Notes: generated by a model not told the origin, from the letters alone. A stretch of 64,000 nucleotides of DNA from an uncultured archaeon (GCA_964354805.1 CAYHBD010000009.1:96001-160000), one strand, 5' to 3'. Shown: positions 26,132 to 45,847, numbered from the stretch's first letter. Translations and numbers: made by a program.

Positions 26132-26153
26132 TTAAATTTTTATTAAAGAAAGC
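26132..26153 (+). promoter_or_regulatory. Shared promoter motif of the WKRGEI family, TTAAATTTTTATT(A/C)AAGAAAG
   Basis: Near-identical copies at 37694-37715, 39914-39935 and 41500-41520, a variant at about 43645-43664; each begins about 40 nt before the start codon. Confidence 0.7.
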
Positions 26154-26174
26154 GCTTTATTTAACTGGATAAAA

Positions 26175-27905
26175 ATGAGACGCAATCCCGCATTTTTTGT
26201 AATTGCTTTTCTTGCAGCATTTTTGCTAGTGAGCAATGGCTGCTATGCCCAAGCCTTTGAGCATTCGCTCCATTTTTTTCAAATCAGGTATGGTGACAGT
26301 ATGGGGGAGCCTCTTCCAGCCGGCAAAGTTGAGTTCACAATCGGGCCTAATGCATATGACGGCTTGCTGCAGTATGCGTATGTATCGTTTATGACAATTA
26401 CCCCCCAGGAAAATGTTAGTAGGGGAGATGCTCCGGGTTATGTTGTTTCACTTGACCCGAGTGAAATAGACACTGTATACAGCCAAAAAGGATACTGGCG
26501 GGGCAACGTATATCGGGTAGATAAAAATGAGCTGCAAATAGCGGATATTCAAAAAATACACAAAGAATTAAATCCAAGCGATCCGGCATTATATTTTGGC
26601 GCTGAGTTGGATGCCAGCGAGAAACCAGCCAAGCCCGCTGGCTTAACAGATGCGGATTATCAGAATGGCAAAACAATTGTTGTTCCAGCAAGATATAATA
26701 ATGATGTACCGTTCCAGAGAAGGTTTTTTTTTAATTTAAATGCCGAGGCAGTGAGAGAATACATGATCCTGTACGCGTTAAAGCAAGCTGGGTCAAAAAA
26801 CATTTTTGTTGATGGTGCTTTTGTTAGTAACTGCCAGATTTGTGTTAATTGCGGTTTTTATTCAGGTGGGGAATGTCCTAAAGGAGAATTAGGAGAATCA
26901 AAAGAATTGCATTATATTTCCAACGAGAGCGCTTCTAGTCAAATAATTACTTACACCTCGCAAATAAATGGCATCCTCAACAAAATAAAGGGCAGCCGAC
27001 AGATTATACTTAATGGCTTTAGTTTAAGCCAATCCCACCCATCTACCGCAGAAGTGCTTCGTTGGCTGTTGGATCATGGTTCCACTAATTTTGATGGAAT
27101 AATGCTGGAAAACGGATTTTGGGGAGATGATCAGTTTTATGCCACTGATTTTTCTGCCAACGGGGGGCATGGCAATAACTGCATTGAGCCCTGGAAGTAT
27201 CAAGGATTGGGCTACAGGGATCATATATGCACTGATATCGAATATTATAGGAAGTATATATTGGAGTTAAAGAACACGAACAAGAAATTTTTGTTTGTAG
27301 CTGGAAGTGATGTTGAAGGCCACCCAGATTATTTAAAATTTGCTATAGGCAACCCTTTGATTGAAGATATATGGCTGTGGTTTCACCTTATTGCAAGCCA
27401 AAACACCTATTTCTATATCACGCAGACTACCCAAGAGCCAATGCTAAATTACCCAGTCTACGATTCTCCTTTGGGGGTGCCCTTAGAAGAAGAGGGGCCC
27501 AGCAAAGATGGCAATACCTGGTCCAGAGAATACGAAAGAGGCACAGTTGTTTTTGACACAACAAAAGGCTGCATAAGTGAAATCAAATTCATTGAAAAAG
27601 AAATATGCGACGGCAAAGACAACGACGGCGATACCCTTATCGATGAAGACAATGTCTGCTGCAACAACGGGCAATGCGATGCTGGCGAAACAGTTACAAC
27701 ATGCCCGCAAGACTGCAAGTGTGGCAATACCCTATGCGATGCAGGCGAAACATTTGAAACCTGCCCAGAGGATTGCCAAGAATGCGTTGATAACGAAAAA
27801 CTAGTAGGCGACTACATCCCCAAATGGAAAAGGGGAGAAATAACCATGCTTGTGCTGATGCAGAAAATCGCGGCACGAAACGCAGGAACAGGATGCCCGC
27901 AATAA
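26175..27905 (+). CDS. Secreted protein: putative glycoside hydrolase-like domain, Cys-rich repeats and WKRGEI C-terminal domain
   Basis: Signal peptide; LG.PL...W.REYERG.V resembles GHL15-type C-termini; CGN..CDAGET..TCP.DC repeats. Confidence 0.75.
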   Translation: MRRNPAFFVIAFLAAFLLVSNGCYAQAFEHSLHFFQIRYGDSMGEPLPAGKVEFTIGPNAYDGLLQYAYVSFMTITPQENVSRGDAPGYVVSLDPSEIDTVYSQKGYWRGNVYRVDKNELQIADIQKIHKELNPSDPALYFGAELDASEKPAKPAGLTDADYQNGKTIVVPARYNNDVPFQRRFFFNLNAEAVREYMILYALKQAGSKNIFVDGAFVSNCQICVNCGFYSGGECPKGELGESKELHYISNESASSQIITYTSQINGILNKIKGSRQIILNGFSLSQSHPSTAEVLRWLLDHGSTNFDGIMLENGFWGDDQFYATDFSANGGHGNNCIEPWKYQGLGYRDHICTDIEYYRKYILELKNTNKKFLFVAGSDVEGHPDYLKFAIGNPLIEDIWLWFHLIASQNTYFYITQTTQEPMLNYPVYDSPLGVPLEEEGPSKDGNTWSREYERGTVVFDTTKGCISEIKFIEKEICDGKDNDGDTLIDEDNVCCNNGQCDAGETVTTCPQDCKCGNTLCDAGETFETCPEDCQECVDNEKLVGDYIPKWKRGEITMLVLMQKIAARNAGTGCPQ

Positions 27906-28064
27906 AAAAAGTGGCGAAAGAAGAGTTAAACAATATTATTAAAGACTTTTTAAACGCAATTAATTGAAAGGGGCAAAAGAAAAGGGGCAATTGCAATGCA
28001 ACTCATCAGGCAGAAGCCTTTTTTGCTGATGCAAAAAAGCCTTGGGAAAGAAAGGTGCCAATAA

Positions 28065-28667
28065 ATGCGGCTGGTAAGGCAGGGAGCAGAGGCAAAGCTG
28101 TTCAGAACAGAATTTGAGGGAAAGCCCGCGCTCTTGAAGCAGCGTTTGCCAAAAGATTACAGGTGCAATGAGTTGGATGAAAGGCTGAGGAAGGAAAGAA
28201 CAACAGTGGAGGGAAATCTGCTGAGGGCCGCAAGGCAGCTTGGCATCAACACACCGCTCGTTTTCTCAGTTGAAAAGGGGAAGAGCGAAATATTAATGCA
28301 ATTCATTTCCGGGCCCAGGGTAAAAGACGTTTTAAGCAAAAAGAACCTGAAAATCTGTAGTGACATTGGCAAAGCAATTGCACTAATGCACGAAAGCAAT
28401 CTGATTCACGGCGACCTGACCACTTCAAATATTCTGCTTGACGGAAAAAAGTTGTTCTTTATTGATTTTGGATTGGGCTACCGCAGCAGCAAGCTGGAGG
28501 ACAAGGCAGTTGATTTGCTTGTTTTCAAAAAAACATTTGAGGCAACCCACTGCAAGCTGATGCCAAAAGGCTGGGAGAAAATAATTGGGGGCTATCTGCA
28601 GGCAGGCGGCTCAGATGGCATTGTAAAACAGATGCAGAAAGTGGAGCAAAGAGTGAGGTACCATTAG
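28065..28667 (+). CDS. bud32: KEOPS kinase/ATPase Bud32
   Basis: QGAEA, K.RLPK.YR..ELD, HGDLTTSN, IDFGL, EDKAVDL, R.RY. Confidence 0.96.
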   Translation: MRLVRQGAEAKLFRTEFEGKPALLKQRLPKDYRCNELDERLRKERTTVEGNLLRAARQLGINTPLVFSVEKGKSEILMQFISGPRVKDVLSKKNLKICSDIGKAIALMHESNLIHGDLTTSNILLDGKKLFFIDFGLGYRSSKLEDKAVDLLVFKKTFEATHCKLMPKGWEKIIGGYLQAGGSDGIVKQMQKVEQRVRYH

Positions 28668-28881
28668 GCAGCAAAAAGGCTTTGCCGAAGGCAGTTTTCC
28701 CAAGGCTTTTTCCAGGGGGAAAAAGGCTTTTTAAATGTTTTGAAAGCAAAGGTATTTACAATTTTTAGTTTTTTCTTTCCCGTTTCAGTAAGAGCGGGAA
28801 GGTAGCTGCTGAAAAGCGGTGATTCTTGGCAAAAAATGAAAATGGCTGGCAAGGTAAACCCAATCGTTTTTGGTGATTTTA

Positions 28882-29580: not shown

Positions 29581-29599
29581 TATTAAAAAAGTGAATTAA

Positions 29600-29722
29600 A
29601 TGGATTGTGGTTTTGTTTTGAAAAAGCAGGGCAAAGTGATTGCAAAACAGAAAGGGATTGCTGACTTGCAGCAAATGCTTTGTGCAATTGACGCAGTAAT
29701 CACGAAAGAGCAGGGCAACTGA
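29600..29722 (+). CDS. Putative 40-aa small protein between rps15 and rps3ae
   Basis: MDCGFVLKKQGKVIAKQKGIADLQQMLCAIDAVITKEQGN*. Confidence 0.35.
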   Translation: MDCGFVLKKQGKVIAKQKGIADLQQMLCAIDAVITKEQGN

Positions 29723-29770
29723 AAATGGATGCTGAAAAAGGAAAAAATGGTGGAACAAAGGTGACTGAGA

Positions 29771-30379: not shown

Positions 30380-30454
30380 AGAAAAATTGAATGACTGAAT
30401 TAAATTTAAATAAGTTAACGCAGGCTGATTGGATAGAACTGTCGAAGGGAAAGT

Positions 30455-31138: not shown

Positions 31139-31205
31139 GTTTTGCCAAAGTGCCACAATCAGCTTTCAAAAGCCAGTTTGTCTGAAACCCGCCAATTTTT
31201 GCAGG

Positions 31206-32126
31206 CTATGACTGTATGCTCGGCTGCTGGCTTTCAAACATGCCCTGCTTCATCCCAAAGCCGAAGCTGTAGCCTGCGCTGCCTAATAAGTCGAGCAAGC
31301 TCGCTTCCTTTTTTCCAAAATCAACTGTTTCAGGGGACTCAATGCCTGCAAACTGGGCTGCCTTTGCTATTGCATCCTGCTTTGTGCCAAGCCCGTCAAT
31401 CAGGCCTGCTGCAAGCGCCTGCTCTCCGCTCAAAATCCTGCCGTCGCTCAAGCGCTCAAACTCGGCTCTATTCAGCCTTTCGCCCCTGAATTTGATTATA
31501 TCTCCCTTGAAGTGCTTGAATGCGCTGGACAAAATTTCCTGCATTATTTCAAGCTGCTCTGCATCCATTTCTTCGAACATGCTGCCCATTGCCTTGTTCT
31601 CGCCTTCCTTCAGAACCCGCACTTTCACGCCGTATTTTTTCAGCAGTTCCTCAATGTTTGCAACAATGCTTATCACCCCAATGCTGCCGGTCAGGCTATC
31701 CGCATCGGCAACAACGTAGTCGCTGGCTGCCGCAACATAGTATGCGCCGCTTGCTCCAAGGTCTCCAATCCATGCAACAACCTTTTTGCTCTTCTTTGCT
31801 TCCTGCACTGCAGCAACTATTTGCTTTGTTGCAACAATGCTGCCGCCAGGGCTGTCAATGTCAAGTAATATTGCTGCAATGCTGGGGTCATCAGCTGCCT
31901 GCTGGACTTTCTCGGCTATTTCACTGCTGCTTAATTCCGTTACAAAAGAGGACTTTTCGGCTTCAATGCTGCCCTTTACAGGGATTACGGCGATTTTGCC
32001 TGAAAAAAGGCTGAATGAAGGAGAGAGAACAAGCAATGCGCTGAACAAAAAAGCCAGGCCGATCAAGGCAACCAAGCCAAGCACTACGGCAATTAGAATC
32101 TTGTTCATCCCAAAAAACCCGGACAT
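31206..32126 (-). CDS. sppA: Signal peptide peptidase SppA (S49)
   Basis: IDSPGG, ASGAYY, TGSIGV, G.IDGLG. Confidence 0.93.
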   Translation of the reverse strand: MSGFFGMNKILIAVVLGLVALIGLAFLFSALLVLSPSFSLFSGKIAVIPVKGSIEAEKSSFVTELSSSEIAEKVQQAADDPSIAAILLDIDSPGGSIVATKQIVAAVQEAKKSKKVVAWIGDLGASGAYYVAAASDYVVADADSLTGSIGVISIVANIEELLKKYGVKVRVLKEGENKAMGSMFEEMDAEQLEIMQEILSSAFKHFKGDIIKFRGERLNRAEFERLSDGRILSGEQALAAGLIDGLGTKQDAIAKAAQFAGIESPETVDFGKKEASLLDLLGSAGYSFGFGMKQGMFESQQPSIQS

Positions 32127-32269
32127 TATAACACCAATTGCCCTGCAACAGTATAAAAATTTAATTGCCCCTCTTACCTTATAAATTTAATAACCATCCA
32201 CCCGTTAAACAAAAAACCTGAATTAAAAAATTAAAATCTTAGAATTAAACAAAAAAAAGTGGTTTTTCG

Positions 32270-32794
32270 GTGAGCCCAGATTTCATTCTCTTCGTTGCAA
32301 GAGCAAGCCTGATGGCGATTCCGCTCTACTTATGCAACAGCATGGCCCTGGTTTTCGGAGGCAAAAAGCCAATCGATTTTGGAAAAAAATTCACGGATGG
32401 AAAGCGACTGCTTGGAGACGGCAAAACAATCAGGGGAACAATTGCAGGAATCGCAATCAGCTCGGCAGCAGCGCTTGCCCTGAGCGCAATATTCCCTGAA
32501 ACTACGATTTTTTTGAACGCAAACTACGCTCTTTACGGCACACTGCTCGCAATCGGGGCGGTTGCAGGTGACTTTGCAGGCAGCTTCGCGAAAAGGCGCA
32601 GGGGCATTGAAAGGGGCGGAAGCGTTTTCCTGCTTGACCAGCTCGGCTTCGTTATTGCAGGGCTTGCGTTCGGCTGCCTGCTTGCCCAGCCGACAGCGCT
32701 TGAATTTTTTTTCCTGCTTGCATTCACAATGCTGGCGCACGTCATCGGCAACAGGATTGCCTTTCTGGCGAAAATAAAAAAAGTCCCATGGTAA
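32270..32794 (+). CDS. carS: CDP-archaeol synthase
   Basis: PIDFG..F.DG.RLLGDGKT.RG, GD..GSF.KRR.G..RG, LDQL.F, K.VPW. Confidence 0.93.
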   Translation: MSPDFILFVARASLMAIPLYLCNSMALVFGGKKPIDFGKKFTDGKRLLGDGKTIRGTIAGIAISSAAALALSAIFPETTIFLNANYALYGTLLAIGAVAGDFAGSFAKRRRGIERGGSVFLLDQLGFVIAGLAFGCLLAQPTALEFFFLLAFTMLAHVIGNRIAFLAKIKKVPW

Positions 32795-32845
32795 GCGAAT
32801 GCCAAAAAAATAGAAAAAGTAAAAAAAATTTCCAAGGGTAATAAA

Positions 32846-33382
32846 ATGAAAAAAACCAAAAAGGAAAAGAAAAGCCATAGCGCAAAAGCAGCAAAAAAGG
32901 GTTTTGGTAAAAAAGCGGTTATTTTTCTAATCAAATTTTTTGCAATCTACGCAATAGCACAGGCGGCAATTTTAATCGCACCGCTCGGTCCGCTGAAAGA
33001 ATGGATTGCATTAATTGAAGCAAGCGCGCTTGGGCTGCAGGCGCAGGGCAACAATATTTTGTTCAACGCGCATTCTTTTGAAATCACGGCGCAGTGCACT
33101 GGCTTGATGAGCGCAAGCGTTCTTGCGGCAATCGCACTTAGCTTGAAAAAGCCCGGCCAGCGGAAAAAAATCGTGTTAATTGCTGCAGGCGCTGTGCTGC
33201 TCTTCTTCATAAACCTGTTTCGCGTTTATCTTGTCCTGCTTGCAGCAATCGCATTCAATCCTGATGCAGCAGGAACCCTGCACGAAATAACATGGTTCGC
33301 AATGGCTGCGCTAATTATTGTAATATGGTATTATTTGACTAAAAGGATTGCCGGCGCAAAGGCGTTTGCGGAAATGCTGTAA
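32846..33382 (+). CDS. Archaeosortase/exosortase family protein
   Basis: Catalytic-type CTG, N..R and LH residues within TM segments. Confidence 0.8.
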   Translation: MKKTKKEKKSHSAKAAKKGFGKKAVIFLIKFFAIYAIAQAAILIAPLGPLKEWIALIEASALGLQAQGNNILFNAHSFEITAQCTGLMSASVLAAIALSLKKPGQRKKIVLIAAGAVLLFFINLFRVYLVLLAAIAFNPDAAGTLHEITWFAMAALIIVIWYYLTKRIAGAKAFAEML

Positions 33383-33386
33383 AAGA

Positions 33387-33521
33387 TCCACGCCTAAAGG
33401 TGTGGGCTTTGTTAAGCACAATGACAACGCAGAACACGGCTGTGCTATTGGAGCAGGATTCATCCAACAGCCTTTAACAAAGGCTGGCGAAATTTTAATG
33501 CACTTTTTGCTAAAAAGTGCA
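33387..33521. mobile_element. Non-coding triple-hairpin element resembling IS200/IS605 ends (PATE/MITE-like)
   Basis: Hairpins at 33387-33406 (CCACGCCTAAAGGTGTGG), 33468-33486 (preceded by ATTCATCC) and 33499-33521 (perfect 10 bp). Confidence 0.45.
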
Positions 33522-33566
33522 ATCGTTAAAGCAAATGACTTTTTCCTGCACAGGCGTAAAGCAACG

Positions 33567-35177
33567 CTATTTCTTCTCAAGTATTGCTTTTGCGACTTCT
33601 CCGAAGGCTGGCCTTGTGATAAACACTCCGACCAGGACTCCGATTGTGGTTGTGATTGCAAACCCGACCAGCCTGCCCAGACCGAAGCCGAGCAAAATCA
33701 GTGGCATCATTGTTGCAACGCTGACTGATGCAGCAGCCACCACAATAAAGAAAGCCCTCTTTGCCCTAGCCAAGAGGCTGCCGCTTTCTGCATCTATTTC
33801 GCCTTTTCGCAGCTCGTCCGTTATAATAATCTGGTCGTCAACGCCTGTTCCAACAGCCGCAACCAGGCCTGCAATGCTGCCCAAGTCAAATTTGCTTATT
33901 AAGGAAGTGAAAGCAGCAGCCATTACTACCTCGCTAACGCTCCAGAAAATCATGGGCAGAGTCAGCTTCAGTAACCTGTATCTTATGAACAAAATAATGG
34001 CAACAACAATTATTGCAAGCAGCCCCATCAAAAACGCATTCTGCAGGAAGTTCTCTCCAAGCAGCGGGCTGATTGTTTCCTTGCTAATGCTTTTAACTCT
34101 CTGGCTCAGGCTGCCTGATTGCAGGATTATCTCCAAATCGCTTCTCCTCTGCTGCGCTGTTTCAGCTGTAGCGCCGCTGCCGAAAATCTGCAGTTTGTCC
34201 ATTGCCTTTGCGTCCTCAAGCCTTGCGACATCCATCTGGGCAACGCTCTCGCTCAGGCTGATAATGCTACGCATGCCCAGTGCATCGAAAATAAACGGCT
34301 TTTGCTCCGGCACTGGAAACGGCTTTAGCTCAAAGCCCATTGCTGCGAGCTGCTGCTGCAGTTCATTGCCAAAATCGGATGGAATTATTGCATTCTTTTT
34401 CTGCGCAACAAGCGCCTGCAATTGCTGCAATTGCTCTTGGCTGAAATTGTTTCCGTCAACGATAAAATAGGGCAGTGCCCCGTTCGCCAAAACCTCTTTC
34501 ATTTTTGTGCCCTCGGGAATGCCTTCAGCCTGCAGCCCCTGCAATAAAATCTGCTCGTCGTTGTAGTAAATTTTTTTAGGCAGAATCAAAACAGCGTTTT
34601 TCGGCCTGTCTATGAAGAAATAGGTTTTATCGCACTCGTATTCCCTTCCTGCAGTTGGGTCAAAGGAAACAAGCTGGCACCTGTGGAATGTCATTTCCTT
34701 AAAGCGGTTTGCTGCATTTATCCTTAAAATAAAGGGCAGTACCCACCTGAAGCCGTCGCCCTCCTTGTATAGGCCATAGCCCATTGTAGGGTCTTTCTCT
34801 ATGCTGATTTCTTCGCCTGTAAAGAGAACGTTGCCGTCGATTGTTGCCTCGAAAACGCCCTGCTTTTTCAGCAGGCTCTCAATCCTTTCAATCGCGGCAG
34901 GATCTGTTTCGGCAATCTGGGCAATGACAAAGCTGTCGCCAAAAAAGTTCACGCTTGTGTCCCTCAAGCCTGTCCAGTCAAGCCTCTGCTGGACTGTTGT
35001 TATCATTCTTGCCCTTTCAACAGGGTCTGTTATCGGCTCCTCCAACTGAACCTGGAAAAGGGTGCCTCCGCTGAAATCGATTCCAAACTGCATGCCTCTT
35101 AATCCAAGAATCAAAAGAGCAATGCACAGAAAGAAAATCATCAAGAGTATTCTCCAGTTTTTCAACAAAGAAGCCAT
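33567..35177 (-). CDS. secD: Protein translocase subunit SecD
   Basis: GIDFSGG, L.SGSL, ISP.LG, GTGVDDQIIITDE; ATG at 35177 after GGTGA. Confidence 0.95.
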   Translation of the reverse strand: MASLLKNWRILLMIFFLCIALLILGLRGMQFGIDFSGGTLFQVQLEEPITDPVERARMITTVQQRLDWTGLRDTSVNFFGDSFVIAQIAETDPAAIERIESLLKKQGVFEATIDGNVLFTGEEISIEKDPTMGYGLYKEGDGFRWVLPFILRINAANRFKEMTFHRCQLVSFDPTAGREYECDKTYFFIDRPKNAVLILPKKIYYNDEQILLQGLQAEGIPEGTKMKEVLANGALPYFIVDGNNFSQEQLQQLQALVAQKKNAIIPSDFGNELQQQLAAMGFELKPFPVPEQKPFIFDALGMRSIISLSESVAQMDVARLEDAKAMDKLQIFGSGATAETAQQRRSDLEIILQSGSLSQRVKSISKETISPLLGENFLQNAFLMGLLAIIVVAIILFIRYRLLKLTLPMIFWSVSEVVMAAAFTSLISKFDLGSIAGLVAAVGTGVDDQIIITDELRKGEIDAESGSLLARAKRAFFIVVAAASVSVATMMPLILLGFGLGRLVGFAITTTIGVLVGVFITRPAFGEVAKAILEKK

Positions 35178-35179
35178 AT

Positions 35180-35390
35180 TGTCACCAAAAACAATTTTTA
35201 GTTTTCTCTCCAAATTCCAAAAAATCTCCTAAAAAAATTTTAGTTTTCTTTCCAATTTCCCAAAAATCACCCAAAAAAAATTTTGATTCCACCTAATTTC
35301 CCAAAAATGCCAACCTCAAATTACCCCAAAAAAAAATTTTAATTTCCACCCACTTCCAAAAAACCTTTTTCCCAAATCACCTAAAATATT
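35180..35390 (-). repeat. Four to five degenerate tandem units of about 40-55 nt between secF and secD
   Basis: Recurring T-run/GG(T/A)GA junction and TTTGG(G)AAATT motifs on the minus strand. Confidence 0.7.
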
Positions 35391-36460
35391 GTCTTTTTCT
35401 TTGCCCTCTCAACATACCACAGCAGCAGCGGGGCGTTCATCAGCCATGTTCCAATTATGTCTCCAACAAGGCCAAACAGCAGCACTGCTGAGATTTCAAA
35501 AATTATGCTGATCTGGTTGAAGTAAGAGACTACCAACATCACCAGAAGCGCGCCTATTGTTGTGCCAGTCATTGTAAGGCCGGTGTTGAGGCTGCCGTAA
35601 GCCCTTTCAACAGGGCTTTTCTCCTTCCTCTGCAGCATTCTCGAGGTGAGCATTACATCAGTGTCAATGCTGTAACCCAACAGCATCAGCAGTGTTGGAA
35701 TGCTGCTCAGGGACAAAGGTATTGAGAATACAGCCATCATTGCAACAGCGCACCCCACATCAAAGATTCCGCACACTATGACTGCAAAGCTGGGAATGAT
35801 TTTCCTGAAGAAAATGAAAATCACTATGGTTACGAGAATAACCGCGAATATTGCAACATTAAGCCCTGTCTGCCAGAAAGAAGCGCTCAGGGTAGGCGAT
35901 ATCTCCCTTCTCTGGAAAGCACTGCTTTCGGATAATGAAAAGCGCTGCTTGATCAAATCCTGCATTTGCTGGCTGGCATTCTTGCCTGCCTCAATCAAGG
36001 CTAATTCAGCCTTGTTTACCGCCTCTTCAGGCTCACTTGGCAGGGTTGTGTCAGTGAGGTAACGCTTTACGCTTTCCACTGCATCCCTCGCAAGCTGCAG
36101 CGCGGCATCAGGATTATCAGGGTTTGTTTCAAGCGCTGCCCTGGCTGCCTCTACAGATGCTTTTCCTGATTCCAGGGCAGTGTCTGCCGCAAACTGGATG
36201 TTCACGCCGTATCCAGCAGGGCCTGAAACACTGCTTACTTTTAATTCTGTTAGTTCAAAGTTTTGTGAGAGCAGACTGCTCAGTTCTGTTGCATCAATGG
36301 GCTTGTCTGCCCTGATTATCACCATGGTTCCGCCCTTGAAGTCAATTCCCATAGGCACTTTGGGCCATACGAAAATGAGGATAAAGAAGACTATGTATAG
36401 GGCAATCGGAATTGCGAGCAGCATTTTGTAGTTTTTACCGTAGAAGTTTGGCAGCTGCAA
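35381..36460 (-). CDS. secF: Protein translocase subunit SecF
   Basis: GIDFKGG, LLMLLGYSIDTD, TGLTMT.T, GD...TW..NA. Confidence 0.95.
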   Translation of the reverse strand: MQLPNFYGKNYKMLLAIPIALYIVFFILIFVWPKVPMGIDFKGGTMVIIRADKPIDATELSSLLSQNFELTELKVSSVSGPAGYGVNIQFAADTALESGKASVEAARAALETNPDNPDAALQLARDAVESVKRYLTDTTLPSEPEEAVNKAELALIEAGKNASQQMQDLIKQRFSLSESSAFQRREISPTLSASFWQTGLNVAIFAVILVTIVIFIFFRKIIPSFAVIVCGIFDVGCAVAMMAVFSIPLSLSSIPTLLMLLGYSIDTDVMLTSRMLQRKEKSPVERAYGSLNTGLTMTGTTIGALLVMLVVSYFNQISIIFEISAVLLFGLVGDIIGTWLMNAPLLLWYVERAKKKTIF

Positions 36461-36623
36461 TCAAAAAACCCCTTTTTAGCAAAAAAACCATTTTTTCAGC
36501 AAAAAAACCCTTTTTTTAAAGGCTTAAAAAAAGCTTATAACAATAAATTAACTAAAGAATTATTTAAAAAGGTTGGGAAAGAATGAGGCTGCAATCGATT
36601 GGAACAAAAGGGGGTGAAAAGCA

Positions 36624-37697
36624 ATGAGGCTGCAATTGGCATTTCTTCCGCCGCAAAAGGAATTGCTTGAGATAGCTTTCAGCAGGGCAAGAAAGCAGGC
36701 GGAAAAAATTGGCGGGCAAGGGACCAAGCTGCAGAAATCAAAGCAAAAAGCAACCCAAAAAATCATCACAAGCGCGGCTTACTTCACCGAAAAGCTGCAG
36801 CAGGCTGTCCAAGGATTCCCCTCAATGCAAAAACAGCACCCTTTCTACAGGGAGCTAATTGAGGCAACTGTTGATTTGGATGCAATGCTCAGGGCCCTTG
36901 GCCAAATGAGCGCTGCCAGGAGAATAACCGACAGGCTGAAAGGGCAGTACATCGGAAAAATCAGGTCCCTTGGAAAGGGAGAGGAAAAAAAAGCGGCTGA
37001 CCTTGTAAGCGGATTCTACGGCAGGCTTGCATCGCTTGCAAAAACCATGGACAAAGGGATTACAGCATACAACGAGAACGCGAAAAAAATGCTGGAGCTG
37101 CCAAACATAAGATTTGATTTGCCGACGGCAATAATCGCAGGCTATCCGAACACAGGCAAAACAACAATCCTAAGCAGGCTCACAAAAAGCAAGCCAAAAA
37201 TAGCTGCATACCCATTCACAACACAGTATCTGCAAATAGGATACCTTGTGCAAAACTATCTGGAATTCCAGCTGATTGACACCCCTGGCTTGCTTGACAG
37301 GCCTCTTGAGAAAAGAAACAAAATTGAAAGGAAAGCGATTGCTGCCCTGCGGCACCTTGCAAATGCCATAATTTTCGTTGTTGACCCGACAACAAGGTGC
37401 GGATTTGAACTTGAAAAACAAGCGAATTTGTTCAAAGAGATTGCAGAAGAATTCAAGGAAACAAAAATTTTGATTGTCTTAAACAAAGCTGACATCGCAA
37501 GCAAAGAGGAAATGCATGCTGCGAAAGAAGCATTCGGCAAAGCTACAATAGTGGAAGGGCAAGGCATCCACTCCAAACTGCGGGAAAAAATCGCAGAAGC
37601 GCTGAAGGAAAGAACCGAACCAACGCAGCAGGAAAAGGAGGCGGAATCAACGGAAGAAAAGAATACAAGCGAGAGCCAAGGCAAGGCAATTGGTTAA
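36624..37697 (+). CDS. NOG1 family GTP-binding protein
   Basis: HPFY, GYPNTGKT, YPFTT, DTPGLLDRP, NKAD. Confidence 0.93.
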   Translation: MRLQLAFLPPQKELLEIAFSRARKQAEKIGGQGTKLQKSKQKATQKIITSAAYFTEKLQQAVQGFPSMQKQHPFYRELIEATVDLDAMLRALGQMSAARRITDRLKGQYIGKIRSLGKGEEKKAADLVSGFYGRLASLAKTMDKGITAYNENAKKMLELPNIRFDLPTAIIAGYPNTGKTTILSRLTKSKPKIAAYPFTTQYLQIGYLVQNYLEFQLIDTPGLLDRPLEKRNKIERKAIAALRHLANAIIFVVDPTTRCGFELEKQANLFKEIAEEFKETKILIVLNKADIASKEEMHAAKEAFGKATIVEGQGIHSKLREKIAEALKERTEPTQQEKEAESTEEKNTSESQGKAIG

Positions 37698-37736
37698 ATT
37701 TTTATTCAAGAAAGCGCTTATTCTAAAGGATTAAAG

Positions 37737-39890
37737 ATGAAACCCAACAGGGCGGTTTTTGCGATTGCCTTTGCAGCAGCATTCCTGCTCGCAAGCACAA
37801 ATTGCTACAGCGTGCAACCTGAAAAAGTGTCTTTGGAGGGGGAAGATTTCATTTTCACTTTTTGGCCGATTTACATAAGCGGATGCACACAGCAAAAACT
37901 GGACGACCCTAACAGTATCGCGAGCAAAAGAATGCAGGGAATTGACACAATGATGGACCCTAGTATAGGAATGACCCATGCAGGCATACATTTCGTGGCC
38001 CTTCCCACTGATGAAAATCCATGTTTAACGAATCTTAAGAATATTAAAAAATACAAGCTGGCTTTAGAAATTAGCGCAGGGCATGGTAGATTAAATGAGG
38101 GGCGTACAGAATTAGCTGACATTAAGTGGCCAGCCGAGTATTTAAACACGGACAAGGGAAAGCAGTTTCTCAAGGCGCCCTGCCTGTGCAATAATTGCAC
38201 TATCACTGAAGAGATTGCAAACAATTGGTCTGATTACGTTGACAAAGAAAGGTGCGGGGATTGGAACAACAATCGTGCACTAGACCCTTCATATACCGGC
38301 ATATTATGGCAGAATACTTTGAATAATACAAAGGATGTTGTAGCAAAGGCTCAGCCTGAAATTGTTTTATTTGACACTGAACTATGGCTTAGGCCAGGAG
38401 CCATAGACACGGATTTTTATGGGGATACTGATTGCCAGTGCATGCTTCTTCAAAAGGCCTTTGGATATGATGGATGCGGAACACAACCACCTTGCAACAG
38501 GTATGATTATTACCAAAAGAACCCGCTATGCTGCCAATATGACCGCTATATTTCTGCCTGGAGGCAGCGCGGGCTTGAGCTGAAAGCGGCAGTTCAATCA
38601 GTTTCTTCAGCAAAAGTTTCTTTTTACGACGAAATTCCAGCAAATGGAAGAAGATATGTTCAGACCTATACCGGGGCGTACTGGGATAATTATGACACAA
38701 TTGGAGCAATGCCAAGCGGCGTTAGCGACTACCCATCGCCTTATTTGTACATTGTTCCAAATTTAGAGGTTTTTGAAAAAAACACGCCCTATCTTTCTGG
38801 CACAGTCCCCTGGGTCAGCTATACTCACATGATGGGGTACAGCAATTTCAATGAGCAAAAAGCAGATGTGTACTTTGATCCAAGCGTGAGCAGGGAAGCC
38901 GGGCGAATGCTAAGGGAAGCTGGGGCAAAAGGGTTCATAGTTTACCCAAACGGCCAAAACATGGAGGAAAGGACTGCTGGAGAGAAGTATTGGCAACACT
39001 ATGGGAAACAGGGCTATGATTATTGGCTGGCGCATGCCAAGGAAATGATTGCAGGATTCAACGAAGAACCAACATATGTTGAGAAAAACAAGATTAGGAA
39101 CAGTGATTTTGAGGCATTCAGGGCAGTAACTAAAGAATATAAAAAGGGGGCGGGAATGTCCCATACTAGCAGCCAATTGGTTGGGCAAACACAGTTTGCG
39201 CCTGTTTTTTGGTTTTGGCAGGATTCAAGCCCAAATTACAACGACATTAATAATGCGGCATTTAGCAATTTGGTTTATGATGACTCGCTGCAAGAATACC
39301 TTAAAGTCCCTGATGCTCAACCGTACAAGAATTTTGTTTTCGCCGATGTTAAGAGCGGAAGCGTTGCCTGGAAGCATTCAAGGAACGGCGAGCCAGGCAG
39401 CAGAACCATTTTGTCAAAAACATTCTCAATTGGGGCTGCTGAGGAAGGAAAGTATAAGTTTTCCATTTGGACAAAAGCAAGCCTTGATTCTGCTAACGGC
39501 AAAATTGAATTCTTTTTAGTGAACACAAGCACTTTGGCAGAGCAAAAACTCGGCGAAACAGGCTTTGAAACAAGCTGGAAAGAATTCAAAAAATATGCAA
39601 ACATGGCAGTTGGAGACTACAACGTAAAAATACTAATAAATGACCAAACAGGGCAAGCAATTGACATATTTCTTGACAAAGCATCGCTGGAAAAAGCGGG
39701 GGAAGAATGCGGAAACACAATATGCGAAGCAGGCGAAACTGTCTCATGCCCGCAGGATTGCCAAGAATGCATTGATACGCCGAAATTAATAGGCTACATT
39801 AGCCAGTGGAAAAGGGGAGAAATAAGCATGCTCACGCTGATGCAAAAAATGAAGCAATATAAAGCAGGAACAGGATGTCCGACGCAGTAA
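37737..39890 (+). CDS. Secreted protein: putative glycoside hydrolase/CBM-like passenger and WKRGEI C-terminal domain
   Basis: Signal peptide; KI.NSDFE...W CBM4/9-like region; CGN..CEAGE..SCP.DC; YISQWKRGEISMLTLMQK. Confidence 0.75.
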   Translation: MKPNRAVFAIAFAAAFLLASTNCYSVQPEKVSLEGEDFIFTFWPIYISGCTQQKLDDPNSIASKRMQGIDTMMDPSIGMTHAGIHFVALPTDENPCLTNLKNIKKYKLALEISAGHGRLNEGRTELADIKWPAEYLNTDKGKQFLKAPCLCNNCTITEEIANNWSDYVDKERCGDWNNNRALDPSYTGILWQNTLNNTKDVVAKAQPEIVLFDTELWLRPGAIDTDFYGDTDCQCMLLQKAFGYDGCGTQPPCNRYDYYQKNPLCCQYDRYISAWRQRGLELKAAVQSVSSAKVSFYDEIPANGRRYVQTYTGAYWDNYDTIGAMPSGVSDYPSPYLYIVPNLEVFEKNTPYLSGTVPWVSYTHMMGYSNFNEQKADVYFDPSVSREAGRMLREAGAKGFIVYPNGQNMEERTAGEKYWQHYGKQGYDYWLAHAKEMIAGFNEEPTYVEKNKIRNSDFEAFRAVTKEYKKGAGMSHTSSQLVGQTQFAPVFWFWQDSSPNYNDINNAAFSNLVYDDSLQEYLKVPDAQPYKNFVFADVKSGSVAWKHSRNGEPGSRTILSKTFSIGAAEEGKYKFSIWTKASLDSANGKIEFFLVNTSTLAEQKLGETGFETSWKEFKKYANMAVGDYNVKILINDQTGQAIDIFLDKASLEKAGEECGNTICEAGETVSCPQDCQECIDTPKLIGYISQWKRGEISMLTLMQKMKQYKAGTGCPTQ

Positions 39891-39956
39891 TAGCATCGCA
39901 GCATTTCAATCAATTAAATTTTTATTAAAGAAAGCACTTATTCTAATTGATTAAAA

Positions 39957-41408
39957 ATGAAAAAAACAATCAGGGCAATTGCCATCTTTGCATTACTTTT
40001 GCTTGCAAGCACAAATGGCAGCAGCGCAAAAAATAATATTTACGGTAGCGGCATAGATACAAATGGCTTGATGCCAATCAATGTTGATGACACCAATGTT
40101 AGCTATCGTTTCAGGGCAGAGCATTCAGGGTTGCTTGAAAGCGTTGCATTTTACCTTGTAATCAACAAGCCGTTGTACACTCAGGGCGATGGCGGGCATT
40201 TGCTGGTTGAATTACGAACTGATGATGGCACTGGAAATCATTTTCCGTCCAACGAAGTTTTAGCATCACACTATATTGATAAACCAATGGATGGGCGCAG
40301 TTATCCCGGTTCTTTTGTTCCTTTACCAGGCAACCCTTCACCCTGCACTGGCAGCTCGTGCGGCGCTGCTTTCCCAAAAATTCCTTTAAATGCACAAATT
40401 GAAGAAGGAAAGCTTTACCACATTGTTTTTTCCAATACGCACGCAGACAGCAGGAATAATTGGATGTCCCTGAATCTGCTTTGGGCTGACAGCACACCAA
40501 TGCAGCCCATGTTTGATGACCTTGATTTTGCACTCCTTTTTTACGACAACTTCCACAAAACATGGACAACCAATAGCGAAACTCTTAGGACCCCAATATT
40601 AAGCGTAGATTACGTTGGTGGCAATTCGCAAGGGCAAGGCTACATAGAAGCGTGGACAAATGGCTCTGTTGCTATTGCAGGCGATAACAAAGTAAGGGAA
40701 AGATTTACTGTAAGCGGCAAGGACAGGCAGATATCAAAGGCATTTGTCAAGGTGCAAAAACCAGCTGGAACAAATCCAGGGGATTTAACATTCAAACTAC
40801 AAAAAGATGACGGCACCATTATTGAAGAAGGCAATGTTGCCTCAGCCAGCATTAGTGAAGGAAGAATGCAATGGGCAAGCTATAGCTTCCGAGAGAAACA
40901 CACATTAAAAGCAGGGGAAACATATGCCCTTGTTCTTGAAGCCCCACCCGGTGACTCATATAGTACTTTTGCAATTAGGGAAGGGGGAGATGTTGGATTG
41001 AACGGGGGTTTATTCAAAGACGGCAATGCATACTATAGTGATGACGGTGGACAGAGCTGGAAGGTGATTAGATACAGCGGATTTGATTTACAATTCTATT
41101 TTGAATTATCCTGCCCAAACGGAAACTGTGAGGAAGGGGAAAATTGTTTAACTTGCCCGCAGGATTGCCCCATATGCCAGCCCCAATGCGGCAACGGCAC
41201 AGCGGACACTGGGGAAAACTGCTCAAGCTGCCCTGCAGACGTGCAGTGCGAAACAGGACAAGAGTGCATAGAAGGAACATGCACAGCAACGGAATGCATT
41301 AGGGAACCAGAGCTGCTCGGCTACATCAGCCAGTGGAAAAGGGGCGAAATAAGCATGCTCACGCTAATGCAAAAAATGAAACTATGGAGCACCGGAACAG
41401 GATGCTAA
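39957..41408 (+). CDS. Secreted protein: beta-sandwich passenger, Cys repeats and WKRGEI domain
   Basis: Signal peptide; L.AG.TYALV..., DLQF repeats; YISQWKRGEISMLTLMQK. Confidence 0.75.
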   Translation: MKKTIRAIAIFALLLLASTNGSSAKNNIYGSGIDTNGLMPINVDDTNVSYRFRAEHSGLLESVAFYLVINKPLYTQGDGGHLLVELRTDDGTGNHFPSNEVLASHYIDKPMDGRSYPGSFVPLPGNPSPCTGSSCGAAFPKIPLNAQIEEGKLYHIVFSNTHADSRNNWMSLNLLWADSTPMQPMFDDLDFALLFYDNFHKTWTTNSETLRTPILSVDYVGGNSQGQGYIEAWTNGSVAIAGDNKVRERFTVSGKDRQISKAFVKVQKPAGTNPGDLTFKLQKDDGTIIEEGNVASASISEGRMQWASYSFREKHTLKAGETYALVLEAPPGDSYSTFAIREGGDVGLNGGLFKDGNAYYSDDGGQSWKVIRYSGFDLQFYFELSCPNGNCEEGENCLTCPQDCPICQPQCGNGTADTGENCSSCPADVQCETGQECIEGTCTATECIREPELLGYISQWKRGEISMLTLMQKMKLWSTGTGC

Positions 41409-41409
41409 C

Positions 41410-41467
41410 GCCAGCATAGCGCAGGCAATGAAAAGCAGGTGAAGGCTGCCCAATATAAAAATGGCTG
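41410..41467 (+). repeat. 58-nt exact direct repeat, copy 1, in the joint between WKRGEI genes
   Basis: GCCAGCATAGCGCAGGCAATGAAAAGCAGGTGAAGGCTGCCCAATATAAAAATGGCTG; identical copy at 43553-43610. Confidence 0.9.
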
Positions 41468-41540
41468 CAAGGGGAAAAAGAATTGCAAAAACTGGGGCAT
41501 TAAATTTTTATTCAAGAAAGACCTACTCTAATTGATTAAA

Positions 41541-43562
41541 TTGAAATCCTGCATTAAAATTCCTGCAATCGCATTCCTTGCAATGCTGTTGATCGGGGCA
41601 GCATCAGCCCAAAAAATGAGGCATAAAGAGAAAAAGTTAATACAAGCGAATTTAGTGCTAGCAATTGGTATAGTTTCTTTACTGATTTTTTTTAGTTTGG
41701 GAAGTATTAGAGAGCCAGTTAAAGAAGGTTTAACGAGCTTTGCCGTATCAAGTTTTGATGAAGTTGTTCCCAATTGTGGCAATAATCTTTGCGAGAGTGG
41801 AGAAATTGCTGAAAGTTGTCCTGATGATTGCGATATATGTTCTGAAGAAAAATGTGATGTGTATGCCCCTATTCAGCATAAGAAATATTTTAAGGCTGAA
41901 AAGGAAGTTTATGGTTATGACCCGCCTTTCCAACCAGCTCGAGTAACCTTTGACGCTAATAATAGGCCATATATCAGAAAGAATGACTGTAACACTACAA
42001 ATGACTTCGCGTTTCGATGTTTTACAAATCAGCTAATTATTCAAACCCTTAACAGCAGTGGAGAGTGGGAGTATTGGGATTTATCTAATATAGTAAAAAC
42101 ATACAAAGACCAAATGTTTAGATCCAGCACTCAAACAGATGAAAGAGTAATTATTGATTCTGACGGAGATATGTATCTTGCAGTTGAATACAATCTTGAA
42201 CCTTCTCTGCTACTTTTATATTCAAATGATGAGGGTAAAAACTGGCAGAGTTATCCTATCCAAGGGGTGTCTATGAAGTTTGAACCATGGCCAGGGCGAA
42301 ATACTCCATCAATTTTAATCACAAATCGTGATAATAAGGAATTATATTTTATTATACCCCAAAAATTATCAAATGGCACCTTAGATCTCTCCCATAAAAT
42401 AAAATTATCAGATAATGCCTGGGAACCACTAAATCCTGGAGGGTATATGAGTTATTCTTTTAGTTATGGTGATCTAACTTTTTTTGTTTGGGCAGAATCA
42501 ATTAGTTCTACTCCTAATGAAAACGGAACTCCATCTTACATTGCCGTGTATAATAGGACAAGCAGATTGTTAAGTCAACCATATCATATTGGAAATGGTG
42601 GAACTTATAATGGGGGGACAGGACTCACTGAGCCCCATAATCAACCAACCTTATGTTTGGATTCCAAAGGGTATATTCATGTTATCCTAGGAGGCCATAA
42701 TGAGCAATTTAAATATTACAAATCAAAATATCCTTTAAATATCACAAAGTGGGAAGCACCCGTCTATCTTGGGGATCCAAATATTGATAATGTACAGAAT
42801 AAACTAACTTATCCTGCACTACTTTGCGGAAAGGATGATACTTTACATCTTGCTATGCGTTCAATAATTCCTACTTATAGTTTCACTTTATCTTATACAA
42901 GAAAAAAAACAGGTCAGGGTTGGGAAAAAATTAAGCCGCTTGTTTTACCATTCAGAGCCTATTATGGACACTGGTATCATCAACTGAACATGGATAATAA
43001 TGGCGTATTGTACTTAAATTATTGGTATCTTGCAAATAATTTATTTGATGATGAGCTTGAGGCTTATCAACAAAAGTGGCCAGACGAAGACATTAATCTT
43101 AGCGGAGCATACAAACCAACAAACAACACATATTGGTGGAATCTCTATCCACTATACCACAGTCCAGCGATGCTTGTTTCCTACGATAACGGAGATTCTT
43201 GGAAGCTCGCTGTTACAAGTGATTTTATAAAAGGAATGAACAAAGAAATCTGCGGAAACCAGCAATGCGAAGCAGGCGAAACCTTTGAAAGCTGCCCAAC
43301 AGACTGCAAATGCGGCAATAGCGCCTGCGAAGTAGGCGAAACTTTCACAACATGCCCGGCAGACTGCAAATGCGGCAATGCAACATGCGACGCAGGCGAA
43401 ACATTCGAAACCTGCCCACGAGACTGCCCTCAAGAATGCGTTGACAACGAAAAACTGGTAGGCTACTATATCCCCCAGTGGAAAAGGGGGGAAATAACCA
43501 TGCTGACACTAATGCAGAAAATGAGGCAATGGAAAGCTGGAACAGGATGCCAGCCAGCATAG
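41541..43562 (+). CDS. Secreted BNR_4-like beta-propeller protein with double signal/TM segment and WKRGEI domain
   Basis: HN.P.L..DS.GYIHV..G.H, LTYP, S.D.G..W Asp-boxes; TTG start placed by analogy with paralog promoters. Confidence 0.78.
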   Translation: MKSCIKIPAIAFLAMLLIGAASAQKMRHKEKKLIQANLVLAIGIVSLLIFFSLGSIREPVKEGLTSFAVSSFDEVVPNCGNNLCESGEIAESCPDDCDICSEEKCDVYAPIQHKKYFKAEKEVYGYDPPFQPARVTFDANNRPYIRKNDCNTTNDFAFRCFTNQLIIQTLNSSGEWEYWDLSNIVKTYKDQMFRSSTQTDERVIIDSDGDMYLAVEYNLEPSLLLLYSNDEGKNWQSYPIQGVSMKFEPWPGRNTPSILITNRDNKELYFIIPQKLSNGTLDLSHKIKLSDNAWEPLNPGGYMSYSFSYGDLTFFVWAESISSTPNENGTPSYIAVYNRTSRLLSQPYHIGNGGTYNGGTGLTEPHNQPTLCLDSKGYIHVILGGHNEQFKYYKSKYPLNITKWEAPVYLGDPNIDNVQNKLTYPALLCGKDDTLHLAMRSIIPTYSFTLSYTRKKTGQGWEKIKPLVLPFRAYYGHWYHQLNMDNNGVLYLNYWYLANNLFDDELEAYQQKWPDEDINLSGAYKPTNNTYWWNLYPLYHSPAMLVSYDNGDSWKLAVTSDFIKGMNKEICGNQQCEAGETFESCPTDCKCGNSACEVGETFTTCPADCKCGNATCDAGETFETCPRDCPQECVDNEKLVGYYIPQWKRGEITMLTLMQKMRQWKAGTGCQPA

Positions 43563-43610
43563 CGCAGGCAATGAAAAGCAGGTGAAGGCTGCCCAATATA
43601 AAAATGGCTG
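43553..43610 (+). repeat. 58-nt exact direct repeat, copy 2
   Basis: Identical to 41410-41467. Confidence 0.9.
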
Positions 43611-43684
43611 TAAAGGAGAAAAAGAATTGCAAAAATGGGAGCAGTAGATTTTTATTCGAAAAAGACATACTCTAATTGATTAAA

Positions 43685-45847
43685 TTGAAATCCTGCGCTA
43701 AAATTCTCGCAATCGCATTACTTGCAATGCTTTTGGCTGGAACAGCGGCGGCTGCCAACTGCATAGGCAACAAGTCTGGGAATCTTATAGTTAACGGAGA
43801 CCTGGAGGCAGTCACCGCAGGCATTCCTGACTGCTGGTATAAAGAGGGCTGGGAAAAAGATGGGGTGGCGCTGCCAGGAAGGGATTTGAATTGGGTTAAG
43901 GACCCTATTACAGGCGGAGACCATGGAATGGTTTTGAAAACGCAGAACACAAGCAATGGATCAGGCACAGGGCTTGCATGGCAAAATCCAGTTGCCCCTG
44001 AGCTTGTAGAGCCAAACACCTGGTATGAGCTTTCCTTCTCTTATGCCACTGAAGGCATTGAACCACTGCTTGACACAGACGGCAACATGCTACAGGACAG
44101 CGTTTGGATTGGGGCAGGCGCTATAATATGGGACGGAAACTGGAATAAGATAGATAAAGTGGATTCGTTAATTTGGGCTCAGGACCTTGAATTGGACAAG
44201 TGGGATGACAGCGCATGGGTTTACAGGACATACAAAAAAACAGGGCTTAAGCCATGGAAAGACGTAAAAAAATATTTTAAGACCCCTGCTGTGGTTGGAC
44301 ATATATACATATTAACATACAATTATCCAAAAGGAACAGCATATTTTGATAATTTCTCACTCAGGAAAATAGGTTACAATCCTAATGATGTTCCATTTAA
44401 AAAATCCGGGACACTGCGCTTCCTCCAGTTTAAGGATGAGGATTTTTTCCCAATATTCCTGCACTCGTTTCCACAAAGAGGAGGGACAGATATTGGATTA
44501 AATGAGGTTAAAGAAAACGGATTCAACACAACAAACAGCTGGAACAAAACAAAAATCGAGGAGTTGGATCTGGCAAGCGCAATAGACCTGCCTGAAATCC
44601 ACAAAGGCTCTCCTGATAATCTCTCATGGTACAATGACCCTGGCCCTGGGAATTCAATTGCATACACTGGAAAGGCAGAAATTAAAACCAGAGTTTCCGA
44701 ATGGAAAGATTTTGACAACCTTTTATTTTTTATAACCAGGAATGAAATTGAGTGCCACCCTGTCAGAGACGAGTCATTTGTGCCTGATTTAGAAACATAC
44801 AAAAAAATCAGCGAATATGTCAGAGGCAATGGGGCAAAAATATTCTACGGGTTCTGCGGAAGCTATTACAATACCCCGGAAGCATATACTGGAAGCTATG
44901 ATGACTTTGTAAATTATTACCATCCGCTTGCGGATATTATAAGCCATACCGCAAACCTGCCGCCGGCATACCCAAGCGCATACAACGAACCTCAATTAGA
45001 CAAGGTCGGCATATGGACAAGGACAGACCTTTCCAGGAGCCCCGAAAAATATTTTATTGCAAGAGGCTTCAGCAGAATGGACTGGGCAAACTGGGACAGG
45101 GCAAGGGAAGCAGATGGGAGTGTTCGCAGGTACGACATATATGTACCGTTCAACCTGCAAAGGTTCCTTGTGTGGACCCAGATAATAAACGGCGCCACAG
45201 GGGCTGATTTTCTGTATACAAGCGCGATAAACCTAACTGACAAAGACTATGCCAAATACTATGCCCACAGCTGGAAGCAGATAACCGCAATATCAAAAGA
45301 GCTCTCGGAATTATACCCTGTTCTTGTTGAACCCCAGTTCCTTGACGAGTGGCAGGTTTCCGATCCAAGAGTGGAGATAATGATGAAAAAGCATGATGAA
45401 AAGATTTACCTTTTTGCAGCAAGCACGCATTATGAGGATTTGCTCAAGGAAACAATAACACTTGACAGCAAATACAACATAGCAAAAATAACGGCACTGA
45501 ACGAAGTAATAAACGGGGATGTGGACAATCCCCCAACTGACAGAAGCATTGAGCTAGCTTCACCAAACAGCTTTGTTGACGACTTTGTTGGAGACGACGG
45601 CTCGCACGCATCTGCAGCAAGCCCTGGATATGCTGTGCACATTTACGAGATTGAATTAAGCGCCTGCGGCAATGGCACATGCGATTCAGGCGAAACTGTC
45701 TCATGCCCGCAGGATTGCCAAGAATGCGTTGACACGCCGACATTAATGAACCAGTACATTCCCCAGTGGAAAAGAGGAGAAATAAGCATGCTAACACTAA
45801 TGCAGAAAATAAGGCAACGGAACACAGGGGAAGGATGCCCGCAATAA
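43685..45847 (+). CDS. Secreted protein: CBM4/9-like domain, GH-like barrel and WKRGEI domain
   Basis: NLIVNGDLE...P..W and YFDNFSL; FFPI....GFN; INGATG; YIPQWKRGEISMLTLMQK. Confidence 0.75.
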   Translation: MKSCAKILAIALLAMLLAGTAAAANCIGNKSGNLIVNGDLEAVTAGIPDCWYKEGWEKDGVALPGRDLNWVKDPITGGDHGMVLKTQNTSNGSGTGLAWQNPVAPELVEPNTWYELSFSYATEGIEPLLDTDGNMLQDSVWIGAGAIIWDGNWNKIDKVDSLIWAQDLELDKWDDSAWVYRTYKKTGLKPWKDVKKYFKTPAVVGHIYILTYNYPKGTAYFDNFSLRKIGYNPNDVPFKKSGTLRFLQFKDEDFFPIFLHSFPQRGGTDIGLNEVKENGFNTTNSWNKTKIEELDLASAIDLPEIHKGSPDNLSWYNDPGPGNSIAYTGKAEIKTRVSEWKDFDNLLFFITRNEIECHPVRDESFVPDLETYKKISEYVRGNGAKIFYGFCGSYYNTPEAYTGSYDDFVNYYHPLADIISHTANLPPAYPSAYNEPQLDKVGIWTRTDLSRSPEKYFIARGFSRMDWANWDRAREADGSVRRYDIYVPFNLQRFLVWTQIINGATGADFLYTSAINLTDKDYAKYYAHSWKQITAISKELSELYPVLVEPQFLDEWQVSDPRVEIMMKKHDEKIYLFAASTHYEDLLKETITLDSKYNIAKITALNEVINGDVDNPPTDRSIELASPNSFVDDFVGDDGSHASAASPGYAVHIYEIELSACGNGTCDSGETVSCPQDCQECVDTPTLMNQYIPQWKRGEISMLTLMQKIRQRNTGEGCPQ

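Follow-up and report, generated by a model that had tools for sequence, protein, structure and literature searches.

A short terminal module and homogenised flanks around unrelated secreted passengers in an uncultured archaeon

Five genes for secreted proteins in the window analysed here, a 64,000-nucleotide (nt) stretch of an uncultured DPANN archaeon (GCA_964354805.1 CAYHBD010000009.1:96001-160000), share a constant head (promoter and signal peptide), cysteine (Cys)-rich spacers and a constant tail of ~40 residues, hereafter the cap, around passengers that are unrelated to each other. The window is contig C9:96001-160000 of a genome designated G000 (1.38 Mb, 49 contigs, 88.5% complete), in which 16 genes carry the tail. 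Heads and tails evolve in concert, and the cap, an autonomous terminal module with a predicted helical-hairpin fold, may serve to hold diverse exoenzymes on a common partner in the cell envelope. DPANN archaea have tiny genomes, and the organisation of their cell surface and exoenzymes is poorly understood; the homogenised flanks of this family offer a concrete archaeal example on which cassette-like gene capture and concerted evolution can be tested.

The gene family and its terminal module

The five open reading frames (ORFs), all on the plus strand, begin at 26175, 37737, 39957, 41541 and 43685, as the sequence-only reading had claimed, and the last four form a tandem array. All five have in common the signal peptide, CGN-type linkers, upstream motif and terminal domain that the same reading had described, so that its modular scheme of constant head, variable passenger and constant tail holds. 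Gene 1 (26175-27905, 576 amino acids (aa)) encodes a signal peptide, a GHL15-like passenger, a MopE-like motif, two CGN units and the tail (27774-27902; tail profile E 1.1e-27). Gene 2 (37737-39890, 717 aa) combines a signal peptide with a passenger that has no family match, one CGN unit and the tail (39759-39887; E 1.2e-28), and gene 3 (39957-41408, 483 aa) combines one with a choice-of-anchor R/DUF4082-like passenger, Cys-rich spacers and the tail (41286-41405; E 7.6e-26). In gene 4 (41541-43562, 673 aa from a TTG start), the family signal peptide is followed by a second anchor, an N-terminal CGN unit, a BNR_4 passenger, three further CGN units and the tail (43428-43559; E 4.8e-30). Gene 5 (43685-45847, 720 aa, likewise from TTG) encodes a signal peptide, a putative CBM4_9-like and GH42-like passenger (a lead only), one CGN unit and the tail (45716-45844; E 9.6e-30).

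A regular expression alone finds 12 tails in G000. The profile built from these 12 (A1) detects 16 (E 1e-20 to 1e-30), all of them at the extreme C-terminus of ORFs of 436-916 aa. Comparison sets comprised 215 genomes of a phylum sample and 61 genomes of the order. Of the 215 genomes of the phylum sample, 11 have the tail, nine from the family of G000 and two from one other family, and G000 has the most copies. A further 14 genomes of the family of G000 lack the cap, and genera g5 and g9 each include genomes with and without it. An exhaustive search of 1.84 billion protein cluster representatives returned just 140 matches at E<=0.001, and the named database members are DPANN or unclassified archaea. 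Among metagenome contigs, the match with P0013 is a single 2-kb fragment; contigs of 69 kb and 216 kb each carry several tail genes. A tblastn tail match in a Betaproteobacteria metagenome-assembled genome (MAG), at WRIU01000006.1 4001-4123 (L019), was rejected as spurious, with no ORF >=100 aa on its strand; the neighbouring genes encode a flippase-like protein and an exosortase-like membrane protein.

Database matches and earlier finds together gave 154 module sequences, of which 151 entered the conservation profile. The module lies at the C-terminal end in 144 of the 154 and N-terminally, just after the signal peptide, in nine, one of which (P0050) is spurious: its nine matched stretches belong to an unrelated Cys-rich repeat protein, which was excluded from the family. 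This N-terminal arrangement, at the start of the mature protein, occurs in sister genera: it is found in 9/9 copies of G008 and 2/2 of G019, both of the same GTDB family as G000. In G004 and G013, all modules but one are C-terminal. Its N-terminal position in some relatives, right behind the signal peptide, shows the cap to be an autonomous terminal module and not a C-terminal sorting signal. Apart from the spurious P0050, no protein among the collected sequences has two or more modules.

A helix motif of ~16 residues, repeated in tandem (MPALLGYIGDWKTG followed by MPTLLGYIGDWKAG; consensus LLxYIxxWKxG, present twice per module), makes up the module between two cysteines; the duplication is plain in the N-terminal modules of P0119 and P0131. 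The first Cys is conserved in 141/151 modules, the last in 149/151, the first Trp in 150/151, the second Trp in 132/151 and a Tyr or Phe in 134/151; moreover, several polar Lys, Gln and Gly positions are near-invariant and about ten hydrophobic positions are conserved. In P0062 both cysteines are lost together. AlphaFold2 models the module as two helices (7-20 and 25-37; mean pLDDT 85.6) that form a hairpin with the two Trp at opposite ends. Since this predicted fold would set the two cysteines side by side, a disulfide that staples the hairpin is the natural reading of the model.

The sequence-only reading had itself named a match of the tail to a known domain as a point that would count against it. 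In Pfam and NCBIfam scans of the five window proteins and of distant members, the tail remained without a covering model, and a PDB sequence-profile search returned chance matches only (E>0.5). A full-text search of the literature on DPANN dockerins, Diapherotrites secreted glycoside hydrolases (GHs) and archaeal choice-of-anchor proteins found the module undescribed. It merits the definition of a family, as its members are otherwise annotated merely as hypothetical.

Promoter, head and cysteine spacers

The upstream motif reported for the family is confirmed by an nhmmer profile of a ~55-nt block searched over G000 (E<1e-4), which finds the block ahead of all five window genes: at 26130-26183 (gene 1; E 7.7e-11), 37692-37745 (gene 2; E 4.3e-13), 39912-39961 (gene 3; E 9.9e-12), 41498-41549 (gene 4) and 43642-43693 (gene 5), all on the plus strand. 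At gene 1, the block, which is also picked up as repeat families D5/D6, consists of the TATA-like AAATTTTTATT and a conserved ~30 nt that run to the ATG. Of 15 matches in the genome, 14 precede tail genes and one precedes a gene truncated by the end of contig C40; AAATTTTTATT as an exact string occurs at 21 sites, 13 of them before family genes. The TATA-like box begins about 30-35 nt upstream of the start codon, and ATG and TTG starts align at one position of the block, which backs the starts assigned at 41541 and 43685. Given this spacing before aligned start codons, the transcripts are likely leaderless or have very short leaders. In G001 (L033, contig C66), the closest relative, a weak match to the block (3413-3459, minus strand; nhmmer E 0.006) precedes a cap-less secreted protein of 371 aa, which is situated between the UPF0147/PolD genes and the contig end.

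Each of the 16 family proteins of G000 starts with a Sec-type signal peptide. Four-Cys units of the CGN type occur in all five window genes and in 12/16 family genes of G000, with one to three units before the tail; gene 4 and one gene on contig C16 have an extra unit near the N-terminus. The N-terminus of gene 4 (41541-41720) is composite: the family signal peptide is followed by a second anchor with its own initial Met, in which the sequence MRHKEKK precedes a membrane span. This double N-terminal signal looks like the footprint of a head grafted onto a gene with its own anchor.

Passengers

In an all-against-all BLASTP comparison, the five window passengers show no mutual similarity and only linker and tail align, which bears out the claim that the middles are non-homologous. 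Genome-wide, there are three small groups of passenger paralogues. The gene 4 passenger matches BNR_4 (PF15892; 48.2 bits, Pfam cut-off 27.3) and that of gene 3 matches choice-of-anchor R (NF041539; 33.2 bits, NCBIfam cut-off 30). The GHL15-like (PF14885) match of gene 1 is below its cut-off (25.9 bits against 27) and aligns only the last 50 profile positions. Language-model leads point to CBM4_9 and GH42 for gene 5 and, weakly, to GH-type TIM barrels for gene 2. A Pfam survey of 75 family members found Beta_helix in 20 and LamG in 13, as well as PKD, GHL15 (4/75 at E<1e-4), GH20, GH42, GH123 and BNR_4.

Judged from these matches and leads, the repertoire is polysaccharide-directed, that is, glycan-active or glycan-binding, in agreement with the earlier description of the passengers as glycan-related. 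The same reading had suggested host attachment by a symbiont, for which we find no support; the repertoire suggests polysaccharide foraging. A further secreted protein of the window, of 1189 aa (17739-21308, minus strand), has GH141-insertion, LamG and beta-helix domains and no cap; the cap is therefore absent from some large exoenzymes of G000.

Concerted evolution of heads and tails

Two ~300-nt joints in the array are 88-90% identical and have sharp ends, beginning within the tail and stopping at the signal-peptide cleavage site. The first (~41300-41605; repeat families D4 and D7) comprises the end of the gene 3 tail, a spacer and the promoter and signal peptide of gene 4; the second (~43445-43750) comprises the corresponding parts of genes 4 and 5. 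As the sequence-only reading had stated, they contain a 58-nt exact repeat (41410-41467 = 43553-43610). The conserved joint it described is thus present between genes 3 and 4 and between genes 4 and 5, but genes 2 and 3 are not separated by a long joint. The spacer shows no sign of RNA structure (z +0.93) and matches no Rfam family.

Codon use distinguishes the flanks from the passengers. Where paralogous passengers share a residue, they encode it by the same codon in 42-55% of cases, against the 41-43% expected from codon usage, so that their synonymous sites are saturated. For the linkers and tails of these pairs, the value is 71-88%, with up to 90% among tails and linkers in general, and the median over all 120 tail pairs is 64%. 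The two closest tails are 95% identical in nucleotides and use the same codon at 28/31 residues (binomial P 5e-8), and the passengers of that pair are unrelated. Moreover, the two paralogues of gene 5, both on contig C16, differ from it in head and tail: its head is ~85% like that of the unrelated gene 4, compared with 27-37% aa identity (first 30 residues) to its paralogues. Conservation also extends ~25-90 nt 3' of the stop codon, in reading frames that differ relative to the stop. On account of the same-codon excess, the mismatch between the head of gene 5 and those of its paralogues, and the frame-shifted 3' flank, these comparisons show heads and tails to be exchanged as DNA, presumably by gene conversion or recombination, independently of the passengers. 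Recombination at the constant flanks, as had been proposed, is in this sense upheld.

Gene 4, with its AT-rich body and retained membrane anchor, has the appearance of a gene of foreign origin that was captured between the two joints. The earlier statement that several middles are AT-rich applies clearly to gene 4 (35.6% GC against 43.8% in the window) and not to the others, gene 1 being marginal (41.7%). No donor of the gene 4 passenger can be named because its closest outside homologues are only ~30% identical.

Possible roles of the cap

We propose that the cap is a terminal docking device by which exoenzymes of many kinds are held on a shared partner in the envelope, a reading to which we give somewhat less than an even chance. 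After Sec export and cleavage of the signal peptide, the cysteines would be oxidised; the Cys spacers would then make up a short, rigid stalk, and the hairpin, stapled by its disulfide, would act as the docking cap. By binding one shared partner, either an S-layer or a membrane protein, the cap would keep many exoenzymes at the cell surface. The need to fit a single partner, together with common regulation, would lead gene conversion to keep heads and tails alike, while passengers would diverge or be captured, gene 4 being a likely example of such capture.

Several observations weigh against this proposal. The screen for a cohesin-like partner that had been suggested found no match to cohesin PF00963 at E<=1 in G000, a genome that is 88.5% complete and in which a divergent partner would be missed. 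The promoter block precedes no gene outside the family in G000 (nhmmer), so that it reveals no co-regulated partner gene, and the genes between clustered tail genes on C16 include no recurring partner candidate, as judged from their ORF sequences only. Because none of these cohesin, promoter and neighbour searches of G000 identified a docking partner, surface display is deduced rather than demonstrated. Moreover, gene 4 has a membrane anchor besides the cap, which makes the cap dispensable for the retention of its protein. Self-association or glycan binding is equally conceivable for a hairpin of 40 residues, the concerted evolution might reflect neutral gene conversion with no functional cause, and both the disulfide and the leaderless transcript are predictions.

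Likeness to known docking modules is also lacking. The label "dockerin-like" used by the sequence-only reading is at best an analogy: PF00404 has no match in the five proteins (E<=0.1) or in the six frames of G000 (E<=1), and when the 151 modules were compared by hhalign with 11 canonical dockerins from the phylum, the result (probability 0.1%, E 0.35) was no better than that of reversed controls (E 0.77). A Foldseek search of the PDB with two models gave no match at E<=0.001, and a VIA-wide comparison returned only generic hairpins with Z<=4.4 (e.g., L27 and the ESCRT-I core), very weak matches; a model of 43 residues gives both searches little power. In these comparisons, significant sequence or fold likeness to dockerins or to any solved docking domain is absent.

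In a broader and rather doubtful form of the docking proposal, the family would constitute a calcium- and cohesin-independent DPANN display system, in which the stapled cap docks exoenzymes on an envelope receptor or on each other, and head and tail act as recombination handles that capture foreign enzyme genes into a ready frame for expression, export and display.

An alternative that we consider unlikely is self-assembly, in which the hairpins of different family proteins would pair, for example as four-helix bundles, into scaffold-free multi-enzyme complexes. The ~ten conserved hydrophobic positions exceed the needs of a two-helix core, concerted evolution would keep the tails mutually compatible, and the G000 searches found neither a receptor nor a cohesin; the best structural neighbours, however weak, are generic interaction hairpins. 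However, these fold matches are non-specific, and proteins with two or more modules are lacking.

It is less probable still that the cap is a miniature glycan-binding module whose two Trp-Lys-x-Gly motifs and Tyr bind substrate polysaccharide or S-layer glycans, in a role like that of carbohydrate-binding modules (CBMs). Attachment through linkers at either end of glycan-active enzymes is typical of CBMs, the aromatic residues counted above are strongly conserved, and no protein partner was found. However, known CBMs are of beta-sandwich, beta-trefoil or hevein type and not helical hairpins, several passengers already have CBM- or LamG-type domains, and the two Trp are at opposite ends of the modelled hairpin.

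The cap might also have no specific function and be a small stabilising end-piece, the likeness of heads and tails being due to neutral gene conversion among recently amplified flanks; this we regard as improbable. The expansion is indeed strongly lineage-specific (16 copies in G000 against 0-14 in relatives), and the promoter block was not found at the examined tail-bearing genes of genera g5 and g9. Against neutrality, the module has been conserved in different genera, in two GTDB families and in one Woesearchaeota MAG, its polar surface residues are invariant, and its terminal position is kept in both N- and C-terminal architectures.

Finally, the idea that the tail is a sorting signal read and processed by an exosortase/archaeosortase-family enzyme, for which a gene (178 aa, 32846-33382, plus strand; PF09721 E 2.4e-12, TIGR04178 49.7 bits) lies between gene 1 and the array, beside those of SppA (31206-32126), SecD (33567-35213) and SecF (35381-36460; these three on the minus strand, the neighbourhood as a whole spanning 31206-36460), is largely refuted and retains hardly any credit. 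The tails end in ...WKxGxGC(PxP) with no transmembrane helix, hydrophobic span or basic C-terminal cluster, and N-terminal modules occur in eight database proteins besides every copy of G008 and G019. In the order, moreover, 55/61 genomes encode the sortase homologue but only 11/61 the tail, and relatives keep the sortase-SecDF-NOG1-PolD neighbourhood with no tail genes there.

Genomic setting

The array occupies the interval between a NOG1-type GTPase gene (36624-37697) on its left and a UPF0147 gene with a PolD small-subunit gene (46055-47845) on its right, all on the plus strand. In most relatives, this gap measures ~0.4-1.3 kb (2.6 kb in G023) and is empty or contains unrelated small genes, compared with 8.6 kb in G000. 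In G001, a gene 5-like gene (48% identity) directly follows NOG1, and the contig ends where the tail should start. Gene 1 is located within a 3.35-kb insertion between a class-I aminoacyl-tRNA synthetase (aaRS) gene and a RIO-type kinase gene, a pair that is adjacent in relatives. By comparison of gene order, the array and gene 1 are thus lineage-specific insertions, placed at variable sites between housekeeping genes.

The insertion that holds gene 1 also contains one or two small overlapping ORFs (24855-26049) with weak winged-helix and DUF6036 nucleotidyltransferase-like matches below cut-offs; relatives lack them at the corresponding aaRS-RIO site. In the secretion neighbourhood, three to four direct AT-rich repeats of ~42 nt (AAAAAATTTTAGTTTTCTTTCCAATTTCC-like; D11/D12) fill the SecD-SecF intergenic region (35189-35369).

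Comparison with known systems

The short conserved tails of the PGF-CTERM, PEF-CTERM and VPXXXP-CTERM families likewise occur on many secreted proteins per archaeal genome, and here too an archaeosortase-family gene is nearby; those tails, however, consist of a motif, a transmembrane helix and a basic cluster, and the cap has neither helix of that kind nor basic end. The spacers of the family (CGNxxCExGExxxCPxDC and, in a subset of members, CDGxDNDCDGxxDE) resemble the small Cys/Asp-rich repeats of DUF4215/MopE type (PF13948, PF11617). PF11617 is matched in 6/75 members, but the CGN units of the five window genes have no Pfam match at E<=0.1. Terminal CBMs and SLH domains are similar in being accessory modules at either end of a protein, where they localise bacterial exoenzymes to the substrate or the cell wall; the cap differs from them as a 40-aa helical hairpin with one predicted disulfide and no homology.

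A relationship to EF-hands (PF00036/PF13202/PF13405) is suggested by the distant members P0133, P0144, P0151 and P0105, which open with a DxDxDGxIxxxE-type loop that precedes the first helix and score 12-17 bits against cut-offs of ~25 (E 0.005-0.1); a NosD-domain protein labelled Woesearchaeota by NCBI is among those with such a loop. An EF-hand or dockerin-type origin was suspected on these grounds and set aside, as all matches are sub-threshold and the dockerin comparison was negative. In addition, the second repeat of the module never has acidic ligands and the window genes have no EF-hand match. In the G000 tails, the residues at which two such calcium loops would place their ligands are P/Q/C/E and P/W/R; with P/Q/C/E at these loop positions, calcium binding by the G000 caps is unlikely.

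A parallel in architecture is the type I dockerin (PF00404) with its cohesin partner. Canonical Dockerin_1 is present in 30/215 genomes of the phylum sample and absent from G000. Within the family of G000, it is found in G002, G010, G011 and G017, and the cap accompanies it in G002 alone; the distribution of dockerin and cap there is close to complementary, in numbers too small to test. The cap is shorter than a dockerin (~40 aa against ~60-70), is closed Cys to Cys and, in the G000 copies, has no calcium-binding loops. Like the dockerin, it is a short duplicated two-helix module, joined through a linker to the N- or C-terminus of many glycan-active exoenzymes per genome that are unrelated to each other. 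Should the cap indeed serve in docking, it would represent a minimal and non-homologous analogue of the cohesin-dockerin pair, and its 40 aa would make a compact natural tag with possible use in protein engineering.

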